Assembly: GCF_963921235.1 (NCBI RefSeq)
Contig: NC_086108.1
Span: 88,414,001-88,478,000, forward strand
From: Mobula hypostoma
Taxonomy: Eukaryota
Direction: 5' to 3'
Length of the DNA stretch: 64,000 nt
Positions 1,700-59,000 of the stretch are shown one piece after another. The notes beneath the pieces were generated by a model that worked only from the letters and a program-made list of their open reading frames with translations, made no database searches and was not told where the DNA came from. Each line of letters begins with the position of its first letter. Positions within the stretch are counted from its first letter, which is position 1. A program made the translations under genes and the position numbers.

Positions 1700-4600
1700 T
1701 GGTACATGATTGAGAGCAGAAATGGCAGCTCAGTATTCCAGGATACAGATGCTACAGGTGTAACAGAGGTAGAGGTAAGTGAAGAGGGGGTGTACCATTT
1801 TTGATAAGGGAGGACATAACAACAGTACTTGGAGATGGCATTCTTCGGTACCTCATGAGGTCATATGAGTCGAAATTACACACAAGAAGGCAAGAGTTAC
1901 TACTGGAGCTGTATTATGGACACATACATAGTCAGTGGGAACTTGAGATGCAGGTGTGTAGAGAAATTGCTCATATTTTTTAAAAATAATAGGGTTGTAT
2001 TTGTCAGAAATTTTAATTTCACTGGTATTGTCTGGGCCAGCCAATAAACAGGAAATTAGAAATGTGTGCAATAAAGGAACAGCAGTTATAATGGGTGACT
2101 TCAATCTACATGTAGACTGGGTGAACCAAATTGGTAAAGGTGCTGAGGAAGAGGATTTCTTGGAATGTATGCGGGATGGTTTTTTGAACCAACATGTCGA
2201 GGAACCAACTAGAGAGCAGGCTATTCTGGACTGGGAATTGAGCAATGAGGAAGGGTTAATTAGCGATCTTGTCGTGAGAGGCCCCTTGGGTAAGAGTGAC
2301 CATAATATGGTGGAATTCTTCATTAACATGGAGAGTGACATAGTTAATTCAGAAACAAAGGTTCTGAACTTAAAGAGGGGTAACTTTGAAGGTATGAGAC
2401 GTGAATTAGCTAAGATAGACTGGCAAATGACAGTTAAAGGATTGACGGTGGATATGCAATGGCAAGCATTTAAAGGTTGCATGGATGAACTACAACAATT
2501 GTTCATCCCAGTTTGGCAAAAGAATAAATCAAGGAAGGTAGTGCACCCGTGGCTGACAAGAGAAATTAGGGATAGTATCAATTCCAAAGAAGTAGCATAC
2601 AAATTAGCCAGAGAAAGTGGCTCACCTGAGGACTGGGAGAAATTCAGAGTTCAGCAGAGGAGGACAAAGGGCTTAATTAGGAAGGGGAGAAAAGATTATG
2701 AGAGAAAACTGGCAGGGAACATAAAAACGGACTGTAAAAGCTTTTATAGATATGTAAAAAGGAAAAGACTGATAAAGACAAATGTAGGTCCCCTGCAGAC
2801 AGAAACAGGTGAATTGATTATGGGGAGCAAGGACATGGCAGACCAATTGAATAATTACTTTGGTTCTGTCTTCACTAAGGAGGACATAAATAATCTTCCA
2901 GAAATAGTAAGGGACAGAGGGTCCAGTGAGATGGAGGAACTGAGTGAAATACATGTTAGTAGGGAAGTGGTGTTAGGTAAATTGAAGGGATTGAAGGCAG
3001 ATAAATCCCCAGGGCCAGATGGTCTGCATTCTAGAGTGCTTAAGGAAGTAGCCCAAGAAATAGTGGATGCATTAGTGATAATTTTTCAAAACTCGTTAGA
3101 TTCTGGACTAGTTCCTGAGGATTGGAGGGTGGCTAATGTAACCCCACTTTTTAAAAAAGGAGGGAGAGAGAAACCGGGGAATTATAGGCCGGTTAGCCTA
3201 ACGTCGGTGGTGGGGAAACTGCTGGAGTCAGTTATCAAGGATGTGATAACAGCACATTTGGAAAGCGGTGAAATGATTGGACAAAGTCAGCATGGATTTG
3301 TGAAAGGAAAATCATGTCTGACGAATCTCATAGAATTTTTTGAGGATGTAACTACTAGAGTGGATAGGGGAGAACCAGTGGATGTGGTATATTTGGATTT
3401 TCAAAAGGCTTTTGACAAGGTCCCACACAGGAGATTAGTGTGCAAACTTAAAGCACACGGTATTGGGGGTAAGGTATTGGTGTGGGTGGAGAATTGGTTA
3501 GCAGACAGGAAGCAAAGAGTGGGAATAAACGGGACCTTTTCAGAATGGCAGGCGGTAACTAGTGGGGTACCGCAAGGCTCAGTGCTGGGACCCCAGTTGT
3601 TTACAATATATATTAATGACTTGGATGAGGGAATTAAATGCAGCATCTCCAAGTTTGCGGATGACACGAAGCTGGGTGGCAGTGTTAGCAGTGAGGAGGA
3701 TGCTAAGAGGATGCAGGGTGACTTGAATAGGTTGGGTGAGTGGGCAAACTCATGGCAGATGCAATTTAATGTGGATAAATGTGAAGTTATCCACTTTGGT
3801 GGCAAAAATAGGAAAACAGATTATTATCTGAATGGTGGCCGATTAGGAAAAGGGGAGGTGCAACGAGACCTGGGTGTCATTATACACCAGTCATTGAAAG
3901 TGGGCATGCAGGTACAGCAGGCGGTGAAAAAGGCGAACGGTATGCTGGCATTTATAGCAAGAGGATTCGAGTACAGGAGCAGGGAGGTACTACTGCAGTT
4001 GTACAAGGCCTTGGTGAGACCACACCTGGAGTATTGTGTGCAGTTTTGGTCCCCTAATCTGAGGAAAGACATCTTTGCCATAGAGGGAGTACAAAGAAGG
4101 TTCACCAGATTGATTCCTGGGATGGCAGGTCTTTCATATGAAGAAAGACTGGATGAACTGGGCTTGTACTCGTTGGAATTTAGAAGATTGAGGGGGGATC
4201 TGATTGAAACGTATAAGATCCTAAAGGGATTGGACAGGCTAGATGCGGGAAGATTGTTCCCGATGTTGGGGAGGTCCAGAACGAGGGGTCACAGTTTGAG
4301 GATAGAGGGGAAGCCTTTTAGGACCGAGATTAGGAAAAACTTCTTCACACAGAGTGGTGAATCTGTGGAATTCTCTGCCACAGGAAACAGTTGAGGCCAG
4401 TTTATTGGCTATATTTAAGAGGGAGTTAGATATGGCCCTTGTGGCTAAAGGGATCAGGGGGTATGGAGGGAAGGCTGGGTTCTGAGTTGGATGATCAGCC
4501 ATGATCATAATAAATGGCGGTGCAGGCTCGAAGGGCCGAATGGCCTACTCCTGCACCTATTTTCTATGTTTCTATGTTTCTATGTAAAATGTGAGGAGTC

Positions 4601-38000: not shown

Positions 38001-41000
38001 CTTGTGGAATCTGAAAGAAACAAAGATTTTAGTCCACAAGTTGACATCATTGTTGAACCGTGAGGCAGGGAATGGGGGGCCTGATCCCTCATATGATTAA
38101 ATATTAATATGAGAAGTATCTCATACGACATTGCTAAACAGAAAAGGAATTCATTATCTTTAATATTCTGGGGAAATTTAAGACTGAATTGCTTTGCCAA
38201 TCTGATTCATGCAAGGAGATGAGGATTGTCCATTTGATCCCTATATCAATCTAAGGAAAAGATACCCCCAGGGGTGCCTGAGGGGGTGGGGGGGGGGTCG
38301 GATGAGCACCCCAGTCAGATGGACACAACGACATCAGACCCAGGCAATAAACAAACGACGATGAGGAAGCAGTGTGCATGTGGCAAAATCTGCAAGAACG
38401 ATCGCGGCTTGAAGATCCACCAAGCGAGGATGAAGCGTTTGGCGGGAGCAGGAGCAGCACAACACACAGGTGTCCAACCTGGTGAGACGAAGGAGGGGCC
38501 AGGCCCAGAGTCACTCCATAGTGCCTGGAACCTCCAAGTGTTGCAAACTAATCCCTCGAACATGAAGTCTAACAGGAGGCGGATCAAATGGCCTGCAGCT
38601 AACATGACTTCACTGTGGAAGCAGTTTGATGAAGATGTTAACCAAATTCTGGAGGCAACGGCGAAGGGAGGTGTTGATAGGAAGCTGCAAGCCATGACAA
38701 CAATTATTGTCAGTATCGCAGCTGAACGGTTCGAAGAGGAGAAGGAAGGCTCCAAAATATCTTACTCAAAGAACCAAAGAGCATTGAGGATCCACAACAT
38801 CAGGCAGGAGATGAAAGCGCTGAAGTCCCAATACAAGGAGGCAGGAGAAGAGGAGCAGATTGGCTTGGCCCAGCTGATGTGCACAATACGAAAGAAGATC
38901 AGGGTCCTCCACCGGGCAGAGTGGCATCGGAGGCGGTGTCGTGAAAGGGCCCGAAAAAGTGCTGCCTTTATCGTCAACTCCTTCAAGTTCACCAAGGAAT
39001 TGCTGGGGGAGAAACGCAGTGGGAAACTGGCCTGTTCACAGGAAGACATAGACCAACATCTGAAGAAGATATATAATGATCCTGAAAGAGAGCAGGAGTT
39101 GGGAGAGTGCGACATCCTAATAGACCCACCTGAACCGGATGTGCAGTTCGACATGTCAGAGCTGCAACTAAAGGAAGTCAGAGAGGTCGTCCGCAAAGCA
39201 AGGGCAAGCTCGGCTCCAGGACCAAGCAACACCTCGTACAAAGTGTACAAGAATTGCCCCAAACTCCTGCTGCGTCTGTGGAAGGTCCTGAGAACCTTTT
39301 GGAGAAGGGGGAAGATCCCAGAACAGTGGAGAGTGACTGAAGGGGTGTGGATCCCGAAGGAGGAAAATGCCACCCAGATAGATCAGTTTCACATCATCTC
39401 CCTGCTGTGTGTCGAGGCGAAGATCTTCCTCAGTGCAGTTTCTAACCGGCTGTGCACCTACCTAGCAAAGAACACCTATATTGATACATCAGTCCTGAAG
39501 GGTGGCATTTCAGGGATGCCGGGCTGTCTGGAGCACATCGGTGTGGTGACACAGCTCATCAGGGAGGCCAGAGAGAACAAGGGCAACCTGTCAGTGTTGT
39601 GGCTCGACCTGGCAAATGCATATGGCTCCATTCTGCACAAGCCGGTGCAGCCCACAATGACCAAATATCACGTCCCCAGAAGAATCAGAGACCTTATTGC
39701 TGATTATTACAGCAACGTCAGGATGAGGGTCTCTTCAGGAGCAATTACATCAACCTGGCACAAGGTGGAGATCAGCATCATCACAGGGTGCTCTATCTCA
39801 GTGACACTGTTCTCCCTAGCCATGAACATGCTCACTAAGTCTGCTGAACCAGAGTGCAGAGGGCCCAGAATGAATTCCGCTCAATGGCAACCACCTATCA
39901 GGGCATTCATGGATGACCTCACAGTCACCACAGAATCAGTCCCAGGCTGCCGGAGGATTCTGCAAGGGTTCGAAAAGCTGGTGGAGTCGGCCCGGATGCG
40001 TTTCAAACCTGCCAAATCAAGATCGATGGTGCTGAGGAAAGGGAAGGTGGAGAACAAGTTCCGGTTCAGCATCGCAGGCACAGCCATCCCAACCATCACA
40101 GAAAAGCCAGTCAAGAGCTTAGGCAAAGTTTTTGACAGCTCTTTAAGGGACACAACATCCATTTAGGCAACCTGCACCGAGTTGGATGGCTGGCTGAAAT
40201 CTGTGGACAAGTCTGGCCTACCTGGGAAGTTTAAAGCCTGGCTGTATCAACATGGCATTCTTCCCAGAATCCTGTGGCCCCTCCTCGTCTATGCAGTTAT
40301 GATCTCAACAGTCGAAACCTTAGAGAGGAGGGTTAGCAACCACCTCAGGAGATGGCTGGGGCTGCCAAAGAGCCTGAGCAGCATCACACTCTATGGACAC
40401 CACAACAAACTGCAACTGCCGTTCAAATCCTTGGAGGAAGAGTTCAAGGTAACAAGAGCCAGAGAAGTGCTACAGTATAGGGACTCAAGTGACCCGAAGG
40501 TGGCTAGAGCAGGGATCCAAGTAAGTACTGGCAGGAAGTGGAGGGCAGAGGAAGCTGTTCAGGAGGCAGAGGCGAGGCTGCGTCACAGGAGGCTGGTGGG
40601 AGTGGTCACACGAGGCCGAGCTGCGCTAGGATCCTTTCCAACTCCCCAAATGGACACGAGAGGGAAGGAAAGACGTCGTCTAGTTCAGGAGGAGGTGAGA
40701 GCAGTAGTGGAGGAGATGAGAGCCTGCAAGGTGGTGGGAATGAAGCAACAGGGAGCTTGGACAAGATGGGAGAATGCGGTTGGGAGGAAAGTGACCTGGG
40801 CTGATCTTTGGAAAGCCGAACCACACCGCATCCAATTTCTCATCCAGGCAGTGTACGATGTGCTTCCAAGCCCATCAAACCTGCTGCACACATGGGGCAA
40901 GGCAGAGTCATCTGCGTGCCCACTGTGCTCCAAGCGAGAAACCCTGGAGCACATCCTCAGTGGCTGTGCAAGGGCACTTGGTGAGGGATGGTACAGGTGG

Positions 41001-44000
41001 AGGCATGATCAGGTCCTGAAGATCATCGCTGAAGCCGTCAGCGCAGGAGTTGAGTGGGCGAAGCGGTCCCGACCCTCCAAGCAGACCATTGCCTTTGTCA
41101 GAGCTGGGGAGCAGCCAATACCTGCCAAAAGAACATCTGCAGGCATTCTGACCTCTGCAAGGGACTGGCAGCAGTTGGTGGACCTCGAAGGGCAGCTGAA
41201 GTTCCCCAGCCATATCGCAGCCACCACCCTGCAACCAGACATTGTCCTAGTGTCTGAGTCTACTAAGCAAGTGGTGCTGCTGGAGCTGACAGTCCCATGG
41301 GAAGATAGCTTGGAAGAGGCCTTTGAAAGGAAGCTCTCCAAGTACGCAGGACTGGTCAGTAACTGTCAGCAGGCTGGATGGAGAGCGAGGTGTCTCCCAG
41401 TGGAGGTTGGTTGTAGGGGATTCGTAGCCCATTCTTTAGTTAGAGCCTTCAGCATTTTGGGCATCGAGGGAGAGAGGAAGAGGAGAGCCATCCGCTGTAC
41501 CACCAATGCGGCAGAGAGGGCCTCAAGATGGCTGTGGCTCAAAAGAGGGGAGCCATGGAGTCATAAGTAGCTAGCCATCTGGACACAAACTGGGGTCTGA
41601 TCAACCCTGGCTTGGTCACCTAGAGGAGGTTGTATGATGTTGAAAGACCTGAAGCACCCAATGATTCCAGGAACATCACTGAAGATGTGTCCAGAAGCAT
41701 CAATAGATGTATGTACACAGCATTAATGGGATTTGTAATGGTGAACTCCCTGAGGTGAGTTTTTCCATGGTTAATTACAAAAAAAAATTTGCACTCCAAT
41801 GCTATAATCAAAAACCGATTCTTCCTGAACACTACTACTACTACGTTGACTCAGGTCTAGGGGGCCGGCGTCGGGCACGATGATGGACTTTCCACTTCTC
41901 CTTCTCCCTCATCAGTGTGTTCAGTTCATCTACATTAGCCGTGCCACTGTCTTCTAGGAGCGTGTTGACCATAGTCTTGTGGGCACCCAGGGTTCATCCT
42001 CCCATGCTTGGGCTCCCATATGATGACTAGGCTGGCAGGTAGCTCAGGGTGGCGTAGACAGTGCCCCGCGAGTTGCAGTCTTCTCACCTCGATTTTAGTG
42101 GAGAGTATCGGTAAGTTGTTATAGAGCTCAATGTTCGTCATGTGCTGTTGCCAACTCACATCAAGAGCCATCCGGAGCATTCGTGTATAGCAACCATCTA
42201 GAGACTTTCACATAGTCTTGGTGAGTGTCCACATCTCACATCCGTACTTGAGAATAGACTCTATGACTGCTAAAAAAAAATCCTCTTTTTCAGCCCTCTG
42301 GTCAGGTTCGATTTCCAGATTTCCTTCATGTCATTCATAGCCCTCCACGCCAGCGCCTTCTGTATCTTTATGTCCTTCTCTGAACTCATCATTTTTGACC
42401 CGCGGTACTTGTAGTCGAAGACTTTCTTAATGGTATCATTCTCTACGGTCTTGAGAGTACCTTCGTCGCAGTTAAACGCCATGTATTCTGTCTTTTTAGC
42501 GTTTAGGTGAAGTCCAACTTTATTGCATTCTATTTCCACTTTTGTCAGTAGCTGCTGTGCTTCCTCCAACTAGTCAGAGAGTAGGACTATGTCATCTGCA
42601 AAATCGAGATCTGTGAGTGTAACTGGTCTGACCCTTTTGGTTTGCCCTGGTTTTATGGTAAAACCAAGTTTGTCATGATCTTTACTGGCTTGACGCAGAG
42701 CGTAATCAAGGACGATTATAAAGATGTAGGGTGCCAGAGTGTCTCCTTGCAGCACACCAGCTAGGAGCTCGAACACTGCTGTTTCTCTGTCTGGTGATAC
42801 AACTTTCGCCATGGTTTTGGTATAGCTGGACTCTATTGCTCTCAGTAGATGGTCTGACACTCCGTAAGCTTTCAGGATCTTCAGCATTTTACCTTCCTGA
42901 ACAACTAGCCAGAAATTTACAAACACTGTGTATTGGAAAACATTCTACATTTAACTGGTTAAATTTTAGCAATATTTCACTGCATACTTCAGTCCTTAGA
43001 CCTCAGATGCCAAGATATGCATAATTAAGGATGCTTGTTCTATGACTAGTGATACAAGATTGCTACTCAACTTCTGGCATCTTTCAGTAATACCAGCCTA
43101 GAAATTGGATTGGCCAGATAAGGCATGATTTTGGTCCTGTTTGGACATGTTTACATACATTTCCTTTTAAATGTCCATTGGTTGGGAAACTGGTCAAGCA
43201 TTTTTGAGTAGGATTTTTCAATGTGATTAATGTTGCGGATCATATTATTGATGAAGGGTCTGACGAAGGGTCTCAGCCCGAAACGTCGACTGTACCTCTT
43301 CCTAGAGATGCTGCCTGGCCTGCTGCATTCACCAGCAACTTTGATGTGTGTTGCAACTTTGATCTGCTCCAGTTTGAGAGAAATCTGCAGTGACTACTTG
43401 TTATTGACAAAGTTCAAAGTCAATTTATTATCAAAGTGTGCATGTACCATATATACCTTGAGATTCATTGTCTTGCAGCCACTTAAAGAAAAGAAAAATA
43501 AATACAATATAATTTATGAAAAATTATACATAAGACTGACAACCTATGAGAAAAAAATGCAAACTGAGCAAATAAAAATAATGACACTGAGAACAAGAGT
43601 TGTAAATAATCCTTGAAAGTGAATCTGTAACTTATAAATGAGTTCAGAGTAGTGGTGAATAAAGTTATTCACACCTGTTCAGGAACTTGATAGTTGCAGG
43701 GTAATAGCTGCCTGAACCCAGCAGTGTCATGATGAAGAGAAAATTGTCAACTTGTAGAATCCTGTTGCCACTGGAGGCAATGAGATGCTCATTAGTATCC
43801 TTCCTGTGTCCACTTACAGCTAAAATCTGTTCACAGAACATCAATAAGAAGAGCTCATCCATTGCAGCCTTTTGCATTACAAGAACATCAAGTTGCTTGC
43901 AAATGGAACTTTGCATTCCCTTATAGTACAAAACTGTGCACATATGACAAATATCTACATTCCTCAAGTAGTCTTCCTTTGTACCTCCATACAGCTGTGC

Positions 44001-56000: not shown

Positions 56001-59000
56001 AGTAATAGACGAAGACAACTGTGCTGCTCCAAAGAGCACTATATAGGTCATTCTTACCCTCAGCCATTAGGCTGTATAACAAGTCAAGCTGTAACCAAGG
56101 AAGTGATGACCCCTTCTTGTTAGACTGTTTGAGGTAACTTTTTTTTTATTCTTCTTACTTCTCTTCTAATATCTGTATATCTGTGCACCTGTAATGCTAC
56201 TGTGACACTGCAATTTCCTTCGGGATCAACCATGTTGAGACAATGGAAGATCAACAAGTAGGTGAAGAAGTGGCTTGGAGTACCGAGCAGCCTCACCAAT
56301 GTTGCAATCCACAGTAGCCAGACAAAGCTTACCGTCCCAGTGCAATCCCTTGTTGAGAAGGTCAAGGTGGCCAAGGTAAGATCATTCTTGATGCTTCGAG
56401 ACTCAAAAGACCCTGTCATCAAGAACTCCCAGCTGGATGTGAGATCAGGCAGGAAGTGGTCAGCCCGTGTAGCAGTTGATGAGGCAGAGTCTAGATTGAA
56501 GCACAAGGAGACGGTTGGGGCTATCCAGCTAGGCTGCTAGGGACTTGGATGGACAACCCACAAGTGGTGGTCATCTTCTACAGGTAAGGAGCGCCGTGAG
56601 CTTGTAACACAAGAAATACGAGAGGTAGAAGAGGAGAAGAAGTTAACTAAAACAGCTGGCCTGGCCAAACAAGGGGCTTGGACCCGGTGGGAAAGTATTG
56701 AACAACGACACCTATCTTGGAATGTTCTGTGGCAGATGGAATCGCTCTGCATTTCTTTTCTATGCAGAGCAGCGTACGATCTGCTCCCAACACCTGCCAA
56801 CCTCAGCACCTGGTATGAAGATAAGACAGACAGGTGTGCTGCTTGTGGCGAGAAGGGAACACTTCAACATATCTTGAGTGCATGCAGAGTCAATCTTTCC
56901 AGCGGCATGTACACTTGGAGACATAACAACATTCTCAAAGTTGTAACAGAAGCGGTTGAGCAGAGAGTACTGCAGCACAACTTATCTCATGCCCCATGCT
57001 GCACAGAACATCGCATATCACTTGTGAAAGAAGGCTCCAAGTCAAGGGTCTACAGCACAGGCTCACGATCAAGCATGTTTTCTTCAGCCAATGGTTGGTG
57101 TGTCAATGCTGACCTGGACGGGAAAGGCAATTTTCCAGAGCAAATAGCTTTCACAGCGTTGCGTCCAGATATAATCGTATGGTCTAACACCAGTAGAAGA
57201 GTGGTTATTGGTGAACTCACAGTCCCCTGGGAAGACAACATCGATGAGGCCCATGAGCGCAAGTTAACCAAGTAGGCAGAATTAAGATCAGAGTGCAGAG
57301 ACAGAGGGTGGAAGGTCTCATGCTATCCATTTGAAGTAGGCTGCCGTGGGTTTATTGCATTCACTCTCCAGAATGGCCGCGTGACCTTGGCTTCACTAGA
57401 AGAGAGATCAAGTCAACCAGCAGGGCTGTAGCTGAGGCAGTAGAGAAAGGATCAGCATGGGTATGGACCAAGTATGCCCAGAGGGGCAGATAGTCAGACA
57501 GTGTATACATCTTTTGCAAACCCTTCAGTAGTTTCATAGACACCTGAAGAGCAGACTATCTGTTGGATGGAAGTGACCAACAACTCTGATAGAGGCAGAT
57601 GCCAAGTTTTTAAGCTCACCAGTGGGAGGTGGTGCTTTAGCACTGCTGGCCCATCACCTCGAAGGAGTCTTGCCGATCAACTGATGATCCCACTGGTGAT
57701 AGCACAGGACAGTTAACATCTTAGTCCACGTGTATTCTGTAACTCTATCTATCTATGCTGATAATGCAGTGAAATACCACTGTAAGACAACTGTGCTGCT
57801 CTAAAGAGTGTTATATGAGGTTATTCTTACCCTTGGCCAATTAGGCTCTATAATTAGTCAACCTATAGCTGGGGATGTGATGACCCCTCTCCTGTTAAGA
57901 CTGTTATTAACCTCTGTTTATCACACTTCTGTTTAAGCTCTGTTTAGTTCTGTTTACTACAGCCTGCTATTGCAGACACCCTGTGCAATACTACCATCAC
58001 TTCCTATCTGGATGGTGTGAATGTGCACCTGTTACTGTATAATATTACGGTATTTCTTGCACTACCACCTTATCGGTGTGAACTTGGTAATCTTGTAAAT
58101 CTTGCAATCGTTGACTTGTAAATTTTGTACATCTTATTTTAAAGTAACATTTGTTTTTTCTGTCTTCTCTTCGAATATTTGTATGTCTGTGCACTTGTAA
58201 TGCTACTGTGGCACTGTAATTCCCTTTGGGATCAATAAAGTATCTATCTATCAAATTATGTTCACCCAGGAACACATTTTGTTGTGTTCTGTGTTGTTCT
58301 GCAGAGCATTGTGAGCATGCTATGGTGTTGCTGGAACGTGTACCCCGTGTGTGTTGGTTGCTAATACAAATACAGCATTTCATTGTATGTTTAAATGTAC
58401 ATGTTATAAATAAATCTGAATCTGAAGAGGCACCAAGGTTTAGTTAGAAGAGTGACCTGTGCAAATATTCTCAGGACACAGGCTATATGGCCCCTTCCAG
58501 TTAGATAGTAGTGCACATACACACAGCCGCCTCTGGGGGGCCAACTGAAGGTGCTTTTTTCCATGTTACCTGTGTTTTTATACATAGTAAGACTATTATT
58601 GACTCCAATAACTACCTGTACAGCATGTTCACCACATCAGTGAGCTGGTTATTGTTCAGAGTAGCCAGCCAGCAGTTTGGAGAAGAATTGGGTCATTGGG
58701 CCGGCAAGGTGGAGATAGGCTGTTGGGCTGGGGAGGTCGACATGAGCCATTGGGCCACAGGAGACTGAGTTTGGAAGAGCTGACCTGAATGGAGACTGTG
58801 CTGCTACATGCTAGTCAGAGGCACTGGAGTTGGTGCGAAGGCAGCATGCCAGACATCCCACCTCTCCCGGAAGTTCCGGGAGTCTCCCGCATGTTAATAG
58901 CGGCTCCCTGATGCCCGAAAATTATATACAATATCTCGGAAATCAGTTTTTTTGAGAGCGAGCGCGCGTGAGAGAGAGAGAGAGAGAGAGAGAGAGTAAA

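Follow-up and report, generated by a model that had tools for sequence, protein, structure and literature searches.

A predicted hammerhead with a four-way junction in the 3' UTRs of an animal R2-group retrotransposon family

The locus described here raises two questions: is the RNA motif that follows the stop codon of a retrotransposon a hammerhead ribozyme, and if so, how could the element use a ribozyme whose predicted cut lies inside sequence that its insertions retain? The window (the whole stretch of DNA that was analyzed, 64,000 nucleotides from Mobula hypostoma) contains, at 38248..41570 (+), the single ORF of an R2-group non-LTR retrotransposon, identified by domain search, sequence motifs and structure matches. 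As is characteristic of this group, one ORF combines a reverse transcriptase (RT), a CCHC knuckle and a PD-(D/E)xK restriction-like endonuclease (RLE). The domain search returned a match to RVT_1, with zf-RVT below the cut-off, and the best PDB matches of the protein were R2 proteins. Protein relatives of the element come from fishes, amphioxus and bivalves; none were found in the viral contigs searched, and six loci with relatives in prokaryotic genome contigs are probably contamination. The element is a putative member of the Hero clade. Hero elements insert in a dispersed, not site-specific, manner, and the 3.5-Gb genome holding the window, in which our genome-wide counts were made, contains 2218 3' ends of this element with unrelated flanks.

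The RNA motif starts 8 nt after the stop codon (TAG, 41568-70), and each of its parts was found where a preliminary description of this sequence had placed it, with two helices refined in extent. The first junction helix, P0, is the closing helix of that description and pairs 41578..41587 (+) with 41686..41695 (+), the first base of the 3' strand lying directly after A9. The second, the P1 hairpin (41588..41612, +), had been given as 41590-41610; it is present, extends over 41588-95/41605-12, and adjoins both P0 and stem II without a linker. Stem II had been given as GGTC (41614-17) paired with GACC (41646-49); this pairing also exists, as part of a 5-bp helix (41613-17/41646-50) whose 5' strand (41613..41617, +) is displaced upstream and whose core-closing pair is mutated on both sides in the window copy, G10.1 being U. 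The helix formed by 41619..41624 (+) and 41666..41671 (+), earlier listed as an extra helix, is the stem I-II interaction helix, the equivalent of helix "I" in type-SGC hammerheads. Block S (41628..41641, +) holds a stem III strand, U16.1 (41633), N17 (41634) and a stem I strand, with the predicted cut 3' of N17 (41634, +), and block G (41646..41659, +) holds the stem II 3' strand, the GAAA segment and the other stem III strand. The stem I 3' strand and CUGAnGA (41672..41685, +) make up block C minus its stem II strand. Comparative pairing placed the stem II 5' strand, block S and the P0 3' strand, and alignment pairing placed the 3' strand of the interaction helix. Stem I (41635-41/41672-78), the NUH triplet GTA (41632-34) and CTGAAGA (41679-85) stand as described, as does a stem III with one mismatch. 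After a 3' tail (41696..41721, +), the element ends ~86 nt past the predicted cut, ragged over a few bases.

The window copy had been suspected to be dead, and it is: it has one in-frame stop near 40164-66, a 5' UTR shortened by ~165 nt, GAAG (41651-54) in place of GAAA, and the core lesions G10.1U, C11.1U and A15.1G relative to the family majority. Folded alone, its energy is unremarkable (z -0.15). The expectation of a family-conserved fold with an intact GAAA was nevertheless borne out, as 27 of the 30 best genomic matches keep GAAA. A strict pattern of the whole core was passed by 13 of these 30, or by 23 if CpG decay at position 11.1 was allowed, and the core pattern had 2502 matches in the genome compared to 358 for a control. 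The main family of the genome has a fixed mismatch in stem III.

We collected relatives by a protein-only search, which is blind to the RNA. Of 529 relatives, the best 80, with identities of 35-86%, yielded 79 metagenomic loci. When a covariance model was trained on 40 sequences, it matched 64 of the 79 loci, a count that includes the training sequences and some partial matches. Among the 15 loci without a match, eight have almost no DNA past the ORF and five have only 131-501 nt, and the motif may be as far as 675 nt away; in one (L118) the motif is present by eye with an inserted hairpin, and in one (L077) there is no hammerhead motif over 2.5 kb past the ORF. The motif also occurs in a second, related family (~42% protein identity), with an internal deletion of ~35 nt in the window (57616..57698, +) and in perfect form elsewhere in the genome. 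This second Hero-like family occupies window positions 56200-57760 (+) and has 954 first-look candidates in the genome. From these comparisons, we conclude that the RNA motif is a deeply conserved predicted hammerhead that is widespread in an animal retrotransposon family.

To score pairing, we used a block parser, which placed the motif blocks in 60 loci. We manually removed nine of these, which were mis-parsed, truncated or had a variant junction (L034, L039, L044, L077, L078, L083, L092, L104 and L111), and ten near-duplicates, leaving 41. Strands paired better with their own partners than with foreign ones in every helix scored (own/foreign: P0, 0.91/0.47; P1, 0.91/0.62; stem I, 0.95/0.51; stem II, 0.99/0.65; stem III, 0.92/0.75). 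When stem II was instead paired with the strand after CUGAnGA, the values were 0.52/0.46 at best. As the parser itself optimizes pairing, the test was repeated on a sequence-only MAFFT alignment of 40 sequences (39 of the 41 loci, two long ones being left out, plus the window copy). In this alignment, 86.8% of cells were paired, compared to 62.3% in shuffles and 36-41% in slid controls, and two-sided change was seen in 373 cells versus 131. All six helices covaried, and each was 80-97% paired. The preliminary description had named covariation of stems I-III as a check on the fold, and these stems were 96.6%, 89.3% and 93.6% paired, the value for stem II being that of its upstream partner. Its extra helices also proved real, with two-sided change in 8/8 pairs of P0 and 7/7 pairs of P1, and with 81.4% pairing in the interaction helix. 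Two-sided change in 31 of 35 pairs overall was reached by 16 of 500 shuffles and is the weakest of the five measures. A plain-SGC stem II pairing was rejected (55.8% paired; four of its pairs are present in only 0-2 of the 41 loci).

The base after A9 is the first P0 pair, which is paired in 38 of the 41 loci with five pair types; no base separates P0 from P1, or P1 from G10.1. P0, P1, stem II and the core are thus predicted to form a four-way junction without unpaired bases, a pattern from which L083 and L104 deviate. The minimum-energy fold of one copy (L009) contains P0, P1 and stem II. The evidence that the motif exceeds chance is comparative and does not come from single-copy folding.

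The conserved core that had been named in advance as support is present: CUGAnGA and GAAA each occur in 39 of the 41 loci. G10.1-C11.1 is found in 37, with G-U in the remaining four, and N7 varies freely. The NUH triplet is likewise retained, with U16.1-A15.1 in 38 of 40. N17, which the parser does not constrain, is C in 16, U in 14, A in 11 and G in none of the 41 loci, and a quick tree of 38 of these loci requires 16 or more changes at this position. Among 78 complete cores, 73 match CUGAnGA, three are U3 variants from one group of families, and two look decayed. One of the three (L062) has U3-A8 and its relatives L097 and L082 have U3.G8; the same U3-A8 swap has been reported for hammerheads in PMC4209133, and the C3/G8 pair is used as a test of hammerhead activity in PMC11167929. 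We conclude from these alignments that the N17 and U3-A8 patterns are the expected marks of selection on an active site.

The motif has the CUGAnGA, G12 A13 A14 A15.1 and NUH elements of a hammerhead, together with covarying stems and a stem I-II contact. Its departure from the hammerhead definition is that A9 does not lie within 1-2 bases of G10.1, as P0 and P1 intervene. Single-base insertions at A9/G10.1 are common in SGC ribozymes according to PMC10085705, and we infer that the active site tolerates a four-way junction at this position. It is therefore likely in our judgment, on the evidence of sequence comparison, that the RNA cleaves 3' of N17 in vitro, and the tail of the element probably contains a self-cutting RNA.

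The block order S-G-C lies outside hammerhead types I, II and III (CGS, GSC and SCG), as previously noted, and types I-III have circular order and no core pseudoknot. Eckert et al. (2023; PMC10085705) define six permutations, taking CUGAnGA to be inseparable from its two stem strands, and report no SGC type from genomes of known organisms. Their type-SGC motif, HRIMA-1, resembles the present one in its order, in stems I-III that form pseudoknots, in a helix that joins the distal ends of stems I and II at one base from stem II, in a 5-bp stem II, and in a short linker from stem I to stem II. It differs in that its stem II strand directly follows CUGAnGA(U), block C being assumed indivisible, whereas here the stem II and interaction strands lie 5' of block S and P0 and P1 close a four-way junction. 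HRIMA-1 is described from metatranscriptomes only, and the present motif from animal retrotransposon DNA. We conclude that the motif, as predicted, follows the type-SGC cyclic order with a break between A9 and G10.1. Only the distant relative L127 (and, weakly, L088) has its stem II strand immediately after CUGAnGA. In L127, a short contig from a 29% identical relative, the 3' UTR holds a plain SGC form that was matched in 0 of 20000 resamples, with 2 matches in 619 kb scanned; being one sequence without covariation, it is a lead to the ancestral state and not proof of it. In the L127 motif (L127:1185-1280, in the 3' UTR of a distant RLE element), stem II and the interaction helix, of 7 bp, are separated by a hairpin, and a TAG repeat follows; the contig, filed in a bacterial MAG, is probably contamination.

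Standard descriptors miss the motif, as had been anticipated: Rfam contains no matching family (two chance matches in 8 kb of the window and none in 8 loci, with no hammerhead match), and the published SGC descriptors cannot match it. In the open literature searched, including passages of PMC3088659, PMC13580325, PMC10162972, PMC6155905 and bioRxiv 10.64898/2026.09.16.752053, we found no link between hammerheads and these elements, in keeping with the earlier remark that none was known. Hammerhead variants that carry additional helices are attributed to Weinberg et al. 2015 in PMC13725137, and a related opening of the core could be among them. On this reading of the literature, the predicted wiring and its setting are undescribed before.

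Three further systems offer parallels. Penelope-like elements with pseudo-LTR hammerheads (PMC4209133; PMC11167929) are also autonomous retroelements with partial head-to-tail tandems, a ribozyme in the repeated part, an internal RT start and a proposed circle model; they differ in having minimal type I hammerheads, often dimeric, a GIY-YIG endonuclease and a telomerase-like RT, compared to the full, predicted monomer-competent fold and R2-like protein seen here. The R2 HDV-like ribozyme (PMC6765202) is a self-cleaving RNA in a restriction-like-endonuclease retrotransposon, as is predicted here, but it is of another class and sets the RNA end from the 5' end, where the present motif is a hammerhead in the 3' UTR with its predicted cut inside retained sequence. 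Non-LTR retrozymes (PMC7229834) are hammerhead-processed tandem repeats with circular RNA in animals; processing is a prediction in our case, and retrozymes are short, non-coding and equipped with type I hammerheads.

In near-complete insertions of the element, the 5' UTR is usually preceded by a precisely joined copy, of variable length, of the insertion's own 3' end. Among 25 loci that match the ORF start, the match extends, by eye, through the whole 5' UTR in 13, of which 12 run on, at the same junction, into a copy of the element's own 3' end, leaving a free end in one. This precise junction occurs 152 times in the genome, with 14 for a control, against 2218 3' ends. We compared the upstream copies at 72 junction records, made up of 60 from the first 100 listed and 12 others (one locus appears twice and one is mis-aligned): 20 end before the cut, 2 at it and 50 beyond it, with 24 of this last group reaching the edge of the DNA examined. 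No pile-up of insertion ends was seen at the cut, and none of 40 ordinary insertions begins there. In 25 of 38 loci checked, the distance to the downstream 3' end is ~3.6 kb, and paired copies of one insertion share 29 derived variants compared to 7.5 by permutation (0/5000). Of 48 metagenomic loci that have 200 nt or more of downstream sequence, 13 continue into a 5' UTR motif or the ORF start; as short-read contigs can loop repeats, this shows that the junction exists and not how long arrays are. Read-through of 3' ends into 5' UTR letters was 29/53 at the first base (9.8 expected) and 12/29, 6/12 and 2/6 at later bases, and since the later bases are only weakly enriched, we do not count it as evidence. 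Together, the junction, pass-through and shared-variant data indicate a template that is continuous over the junction and the cut site.

We lean slightly toward a model in which a rewired hammerhead cuts after N17 and a circular unit RNA is copied from an internal start. P0 would stack on P1 beside the stem II/core stack, which would keep the active site and let the RNA cut after N17, possibly with a need for the element's protein. Transcription through a partial tandem would give an RNA with two ribozymes, and two cuts would free a unit RNA of ~3.6 kb, the ends of which may be re-joined to a circle by the ribozyme or by a host ligase such as RtcB. Target-primed reverse transcription would then start internally, ~86 nt past the joint, and may exceed one round, giving 5'-truncated copies and new partial tandems, so that the ligated circle would renew the upstream copy in each generation. 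Copying of a circle from an internal start would explain why the cut site is intact in every insertion. A circle model was proposed before for Penelope-like elements (PMC4209133). The preliminary description had offered re-ligation and dimerization, among other options, for the retained cut: re-ligation fits the head-to-tail insertions best, and nothing favors the dimer. A dimer is not needed, as all stems form within one copy. The model is weakened by L077, whose copies stand head-to-tail without the motif, by the fixed stem III mismatch in this genome's main family, and by the rarity of U3-A8, which occurs in 1 of 78 complete cores.

The same structural and core evidence is shared by a different model, in which the ribozyme is active but reverse transcription begins internally on a multimeric transcript that has not been cut. 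Cleavage would then have another purpose, either freeing the downstream unit from host transcripts and licensing cap-independent translation, as R2's 5' ribozyme does, or destroying surplus RNA. The genomic head-to-tail pattern fits such transcripts equally well, in tandems the upstream ribozyme lies ~250 nt before the next ORF, and precedents appear in PMC11167929 and PMC13725137; the former reports that Penelope-like insertion in vitro needs no cleavage and that uncut RNA is the main template. However, cut RNA as template would pile 5' ends at the cut, where 2 of 72 were seen; linear masters would be expected to produce common break points next to common host flanks, and no such case was found by eye among ~48 listed; and without circles the upstream copy could only shrink, yet tandems persist in distant families. 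We consider this model unlikely.

Retention of the cut site in all insertions is also accommodated if a non-catalytic, hammerhead-derived fold docks the RT at the 3' end, with the junction helices holding the core inactive. In favor of this, P0 does occupy the strand that follows CUGAnGA, and folded 3' UTRs are bound by R2 proteins (PMC6765202). Four of the 24 sequencing runs listed showed 0 RNA ends and 0 records bridging the junction by 31 letters on each side, but all of these runs were contigs and uninformative on this point. However, stem II is not missing and is completed by the upstream strand at the high pairing noted above, a scaffold explains neither the exclusion of G at an N17 that is repeatedly swapped among C, U and A nor the U3-A8 pair, and L127 has the plain SGC form in the same place. 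We thus regard a docking role without catalysis as improbable.

A last alternative, in which the tandems form when the reverse transcriptase jumps from one linear RNA to another or when new copies insert at the 5' end of the element itself, the ribozyme being unrelated to them, is very improbable. The junction does not vary, in contrast to the ragged 3' ends of insertions, a free 5' UTR start was seen in only 1 of 13 loci, and paired copies share variants. In its favor, the R2 reverse transcriptase copies non-continuous templates.

Our circular-template model can be extended, tentatively and with somewhat less than an even chance of being right in full, to a seventh, active natural hammerhead wiring in which the junction is maybe a protein-controlled switch, with clade-wide replication via a coding circle of ~3.6-3.8 kb and descent from a plain SGC form as in L127. 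The predicted motif breaks a published rule of hammerhead architecture, that block C is inseparable, and non-circular permutations would move from metatranscriptomic RNAs into animal genomes. As Rfam and the SGC descriptors do not detect it, ribozymes of this class, present in many copies in the genomes of fishes and marine invertebrates, would have been missed. If true, the reading would tie viroid-like SGC ribozymes to animal LINEs, and the circle model of retrotransposition could be tested on a full-size ribozyme combined with an R2-like protein, which belongs to a group under development for gene insertion.

Several further observations were made along the way. L077 is head-to-tail yet without the motif; no hammerhead is detectable between its stop and the next 5' UTR (L077:1148-2450), and it may use another ribozyme class or none. 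The L048 contig starts 1-2 nt past the predicted cut of its own ribozyme (L048:1-90 and 3684-3773), a single case that may be an assembly branch point. A repeated, conserved motif of ~22 nt that can form small hairpins occurs in 5' UTRs (L141:1347-1520 and, among other metagenomic loci, L052, L053, L062 and L077); it is common to distant families, even the ribozyme-less L077, and is a candidate promoter, translation element or protein site. Long 3' UTRs with an abundance of short GGATTA/TAATCC words upstream of the ribozyme are present in L103, L111 and L113, and L260:910-5425 contains long arrays of a ~34-nt tandem repeat interleaved with second-family fragments. Elsewhere in the window, an ORF at 1962-4394 (+) with APE-type endonuclease and RT domains is that of an ordinary LINE.
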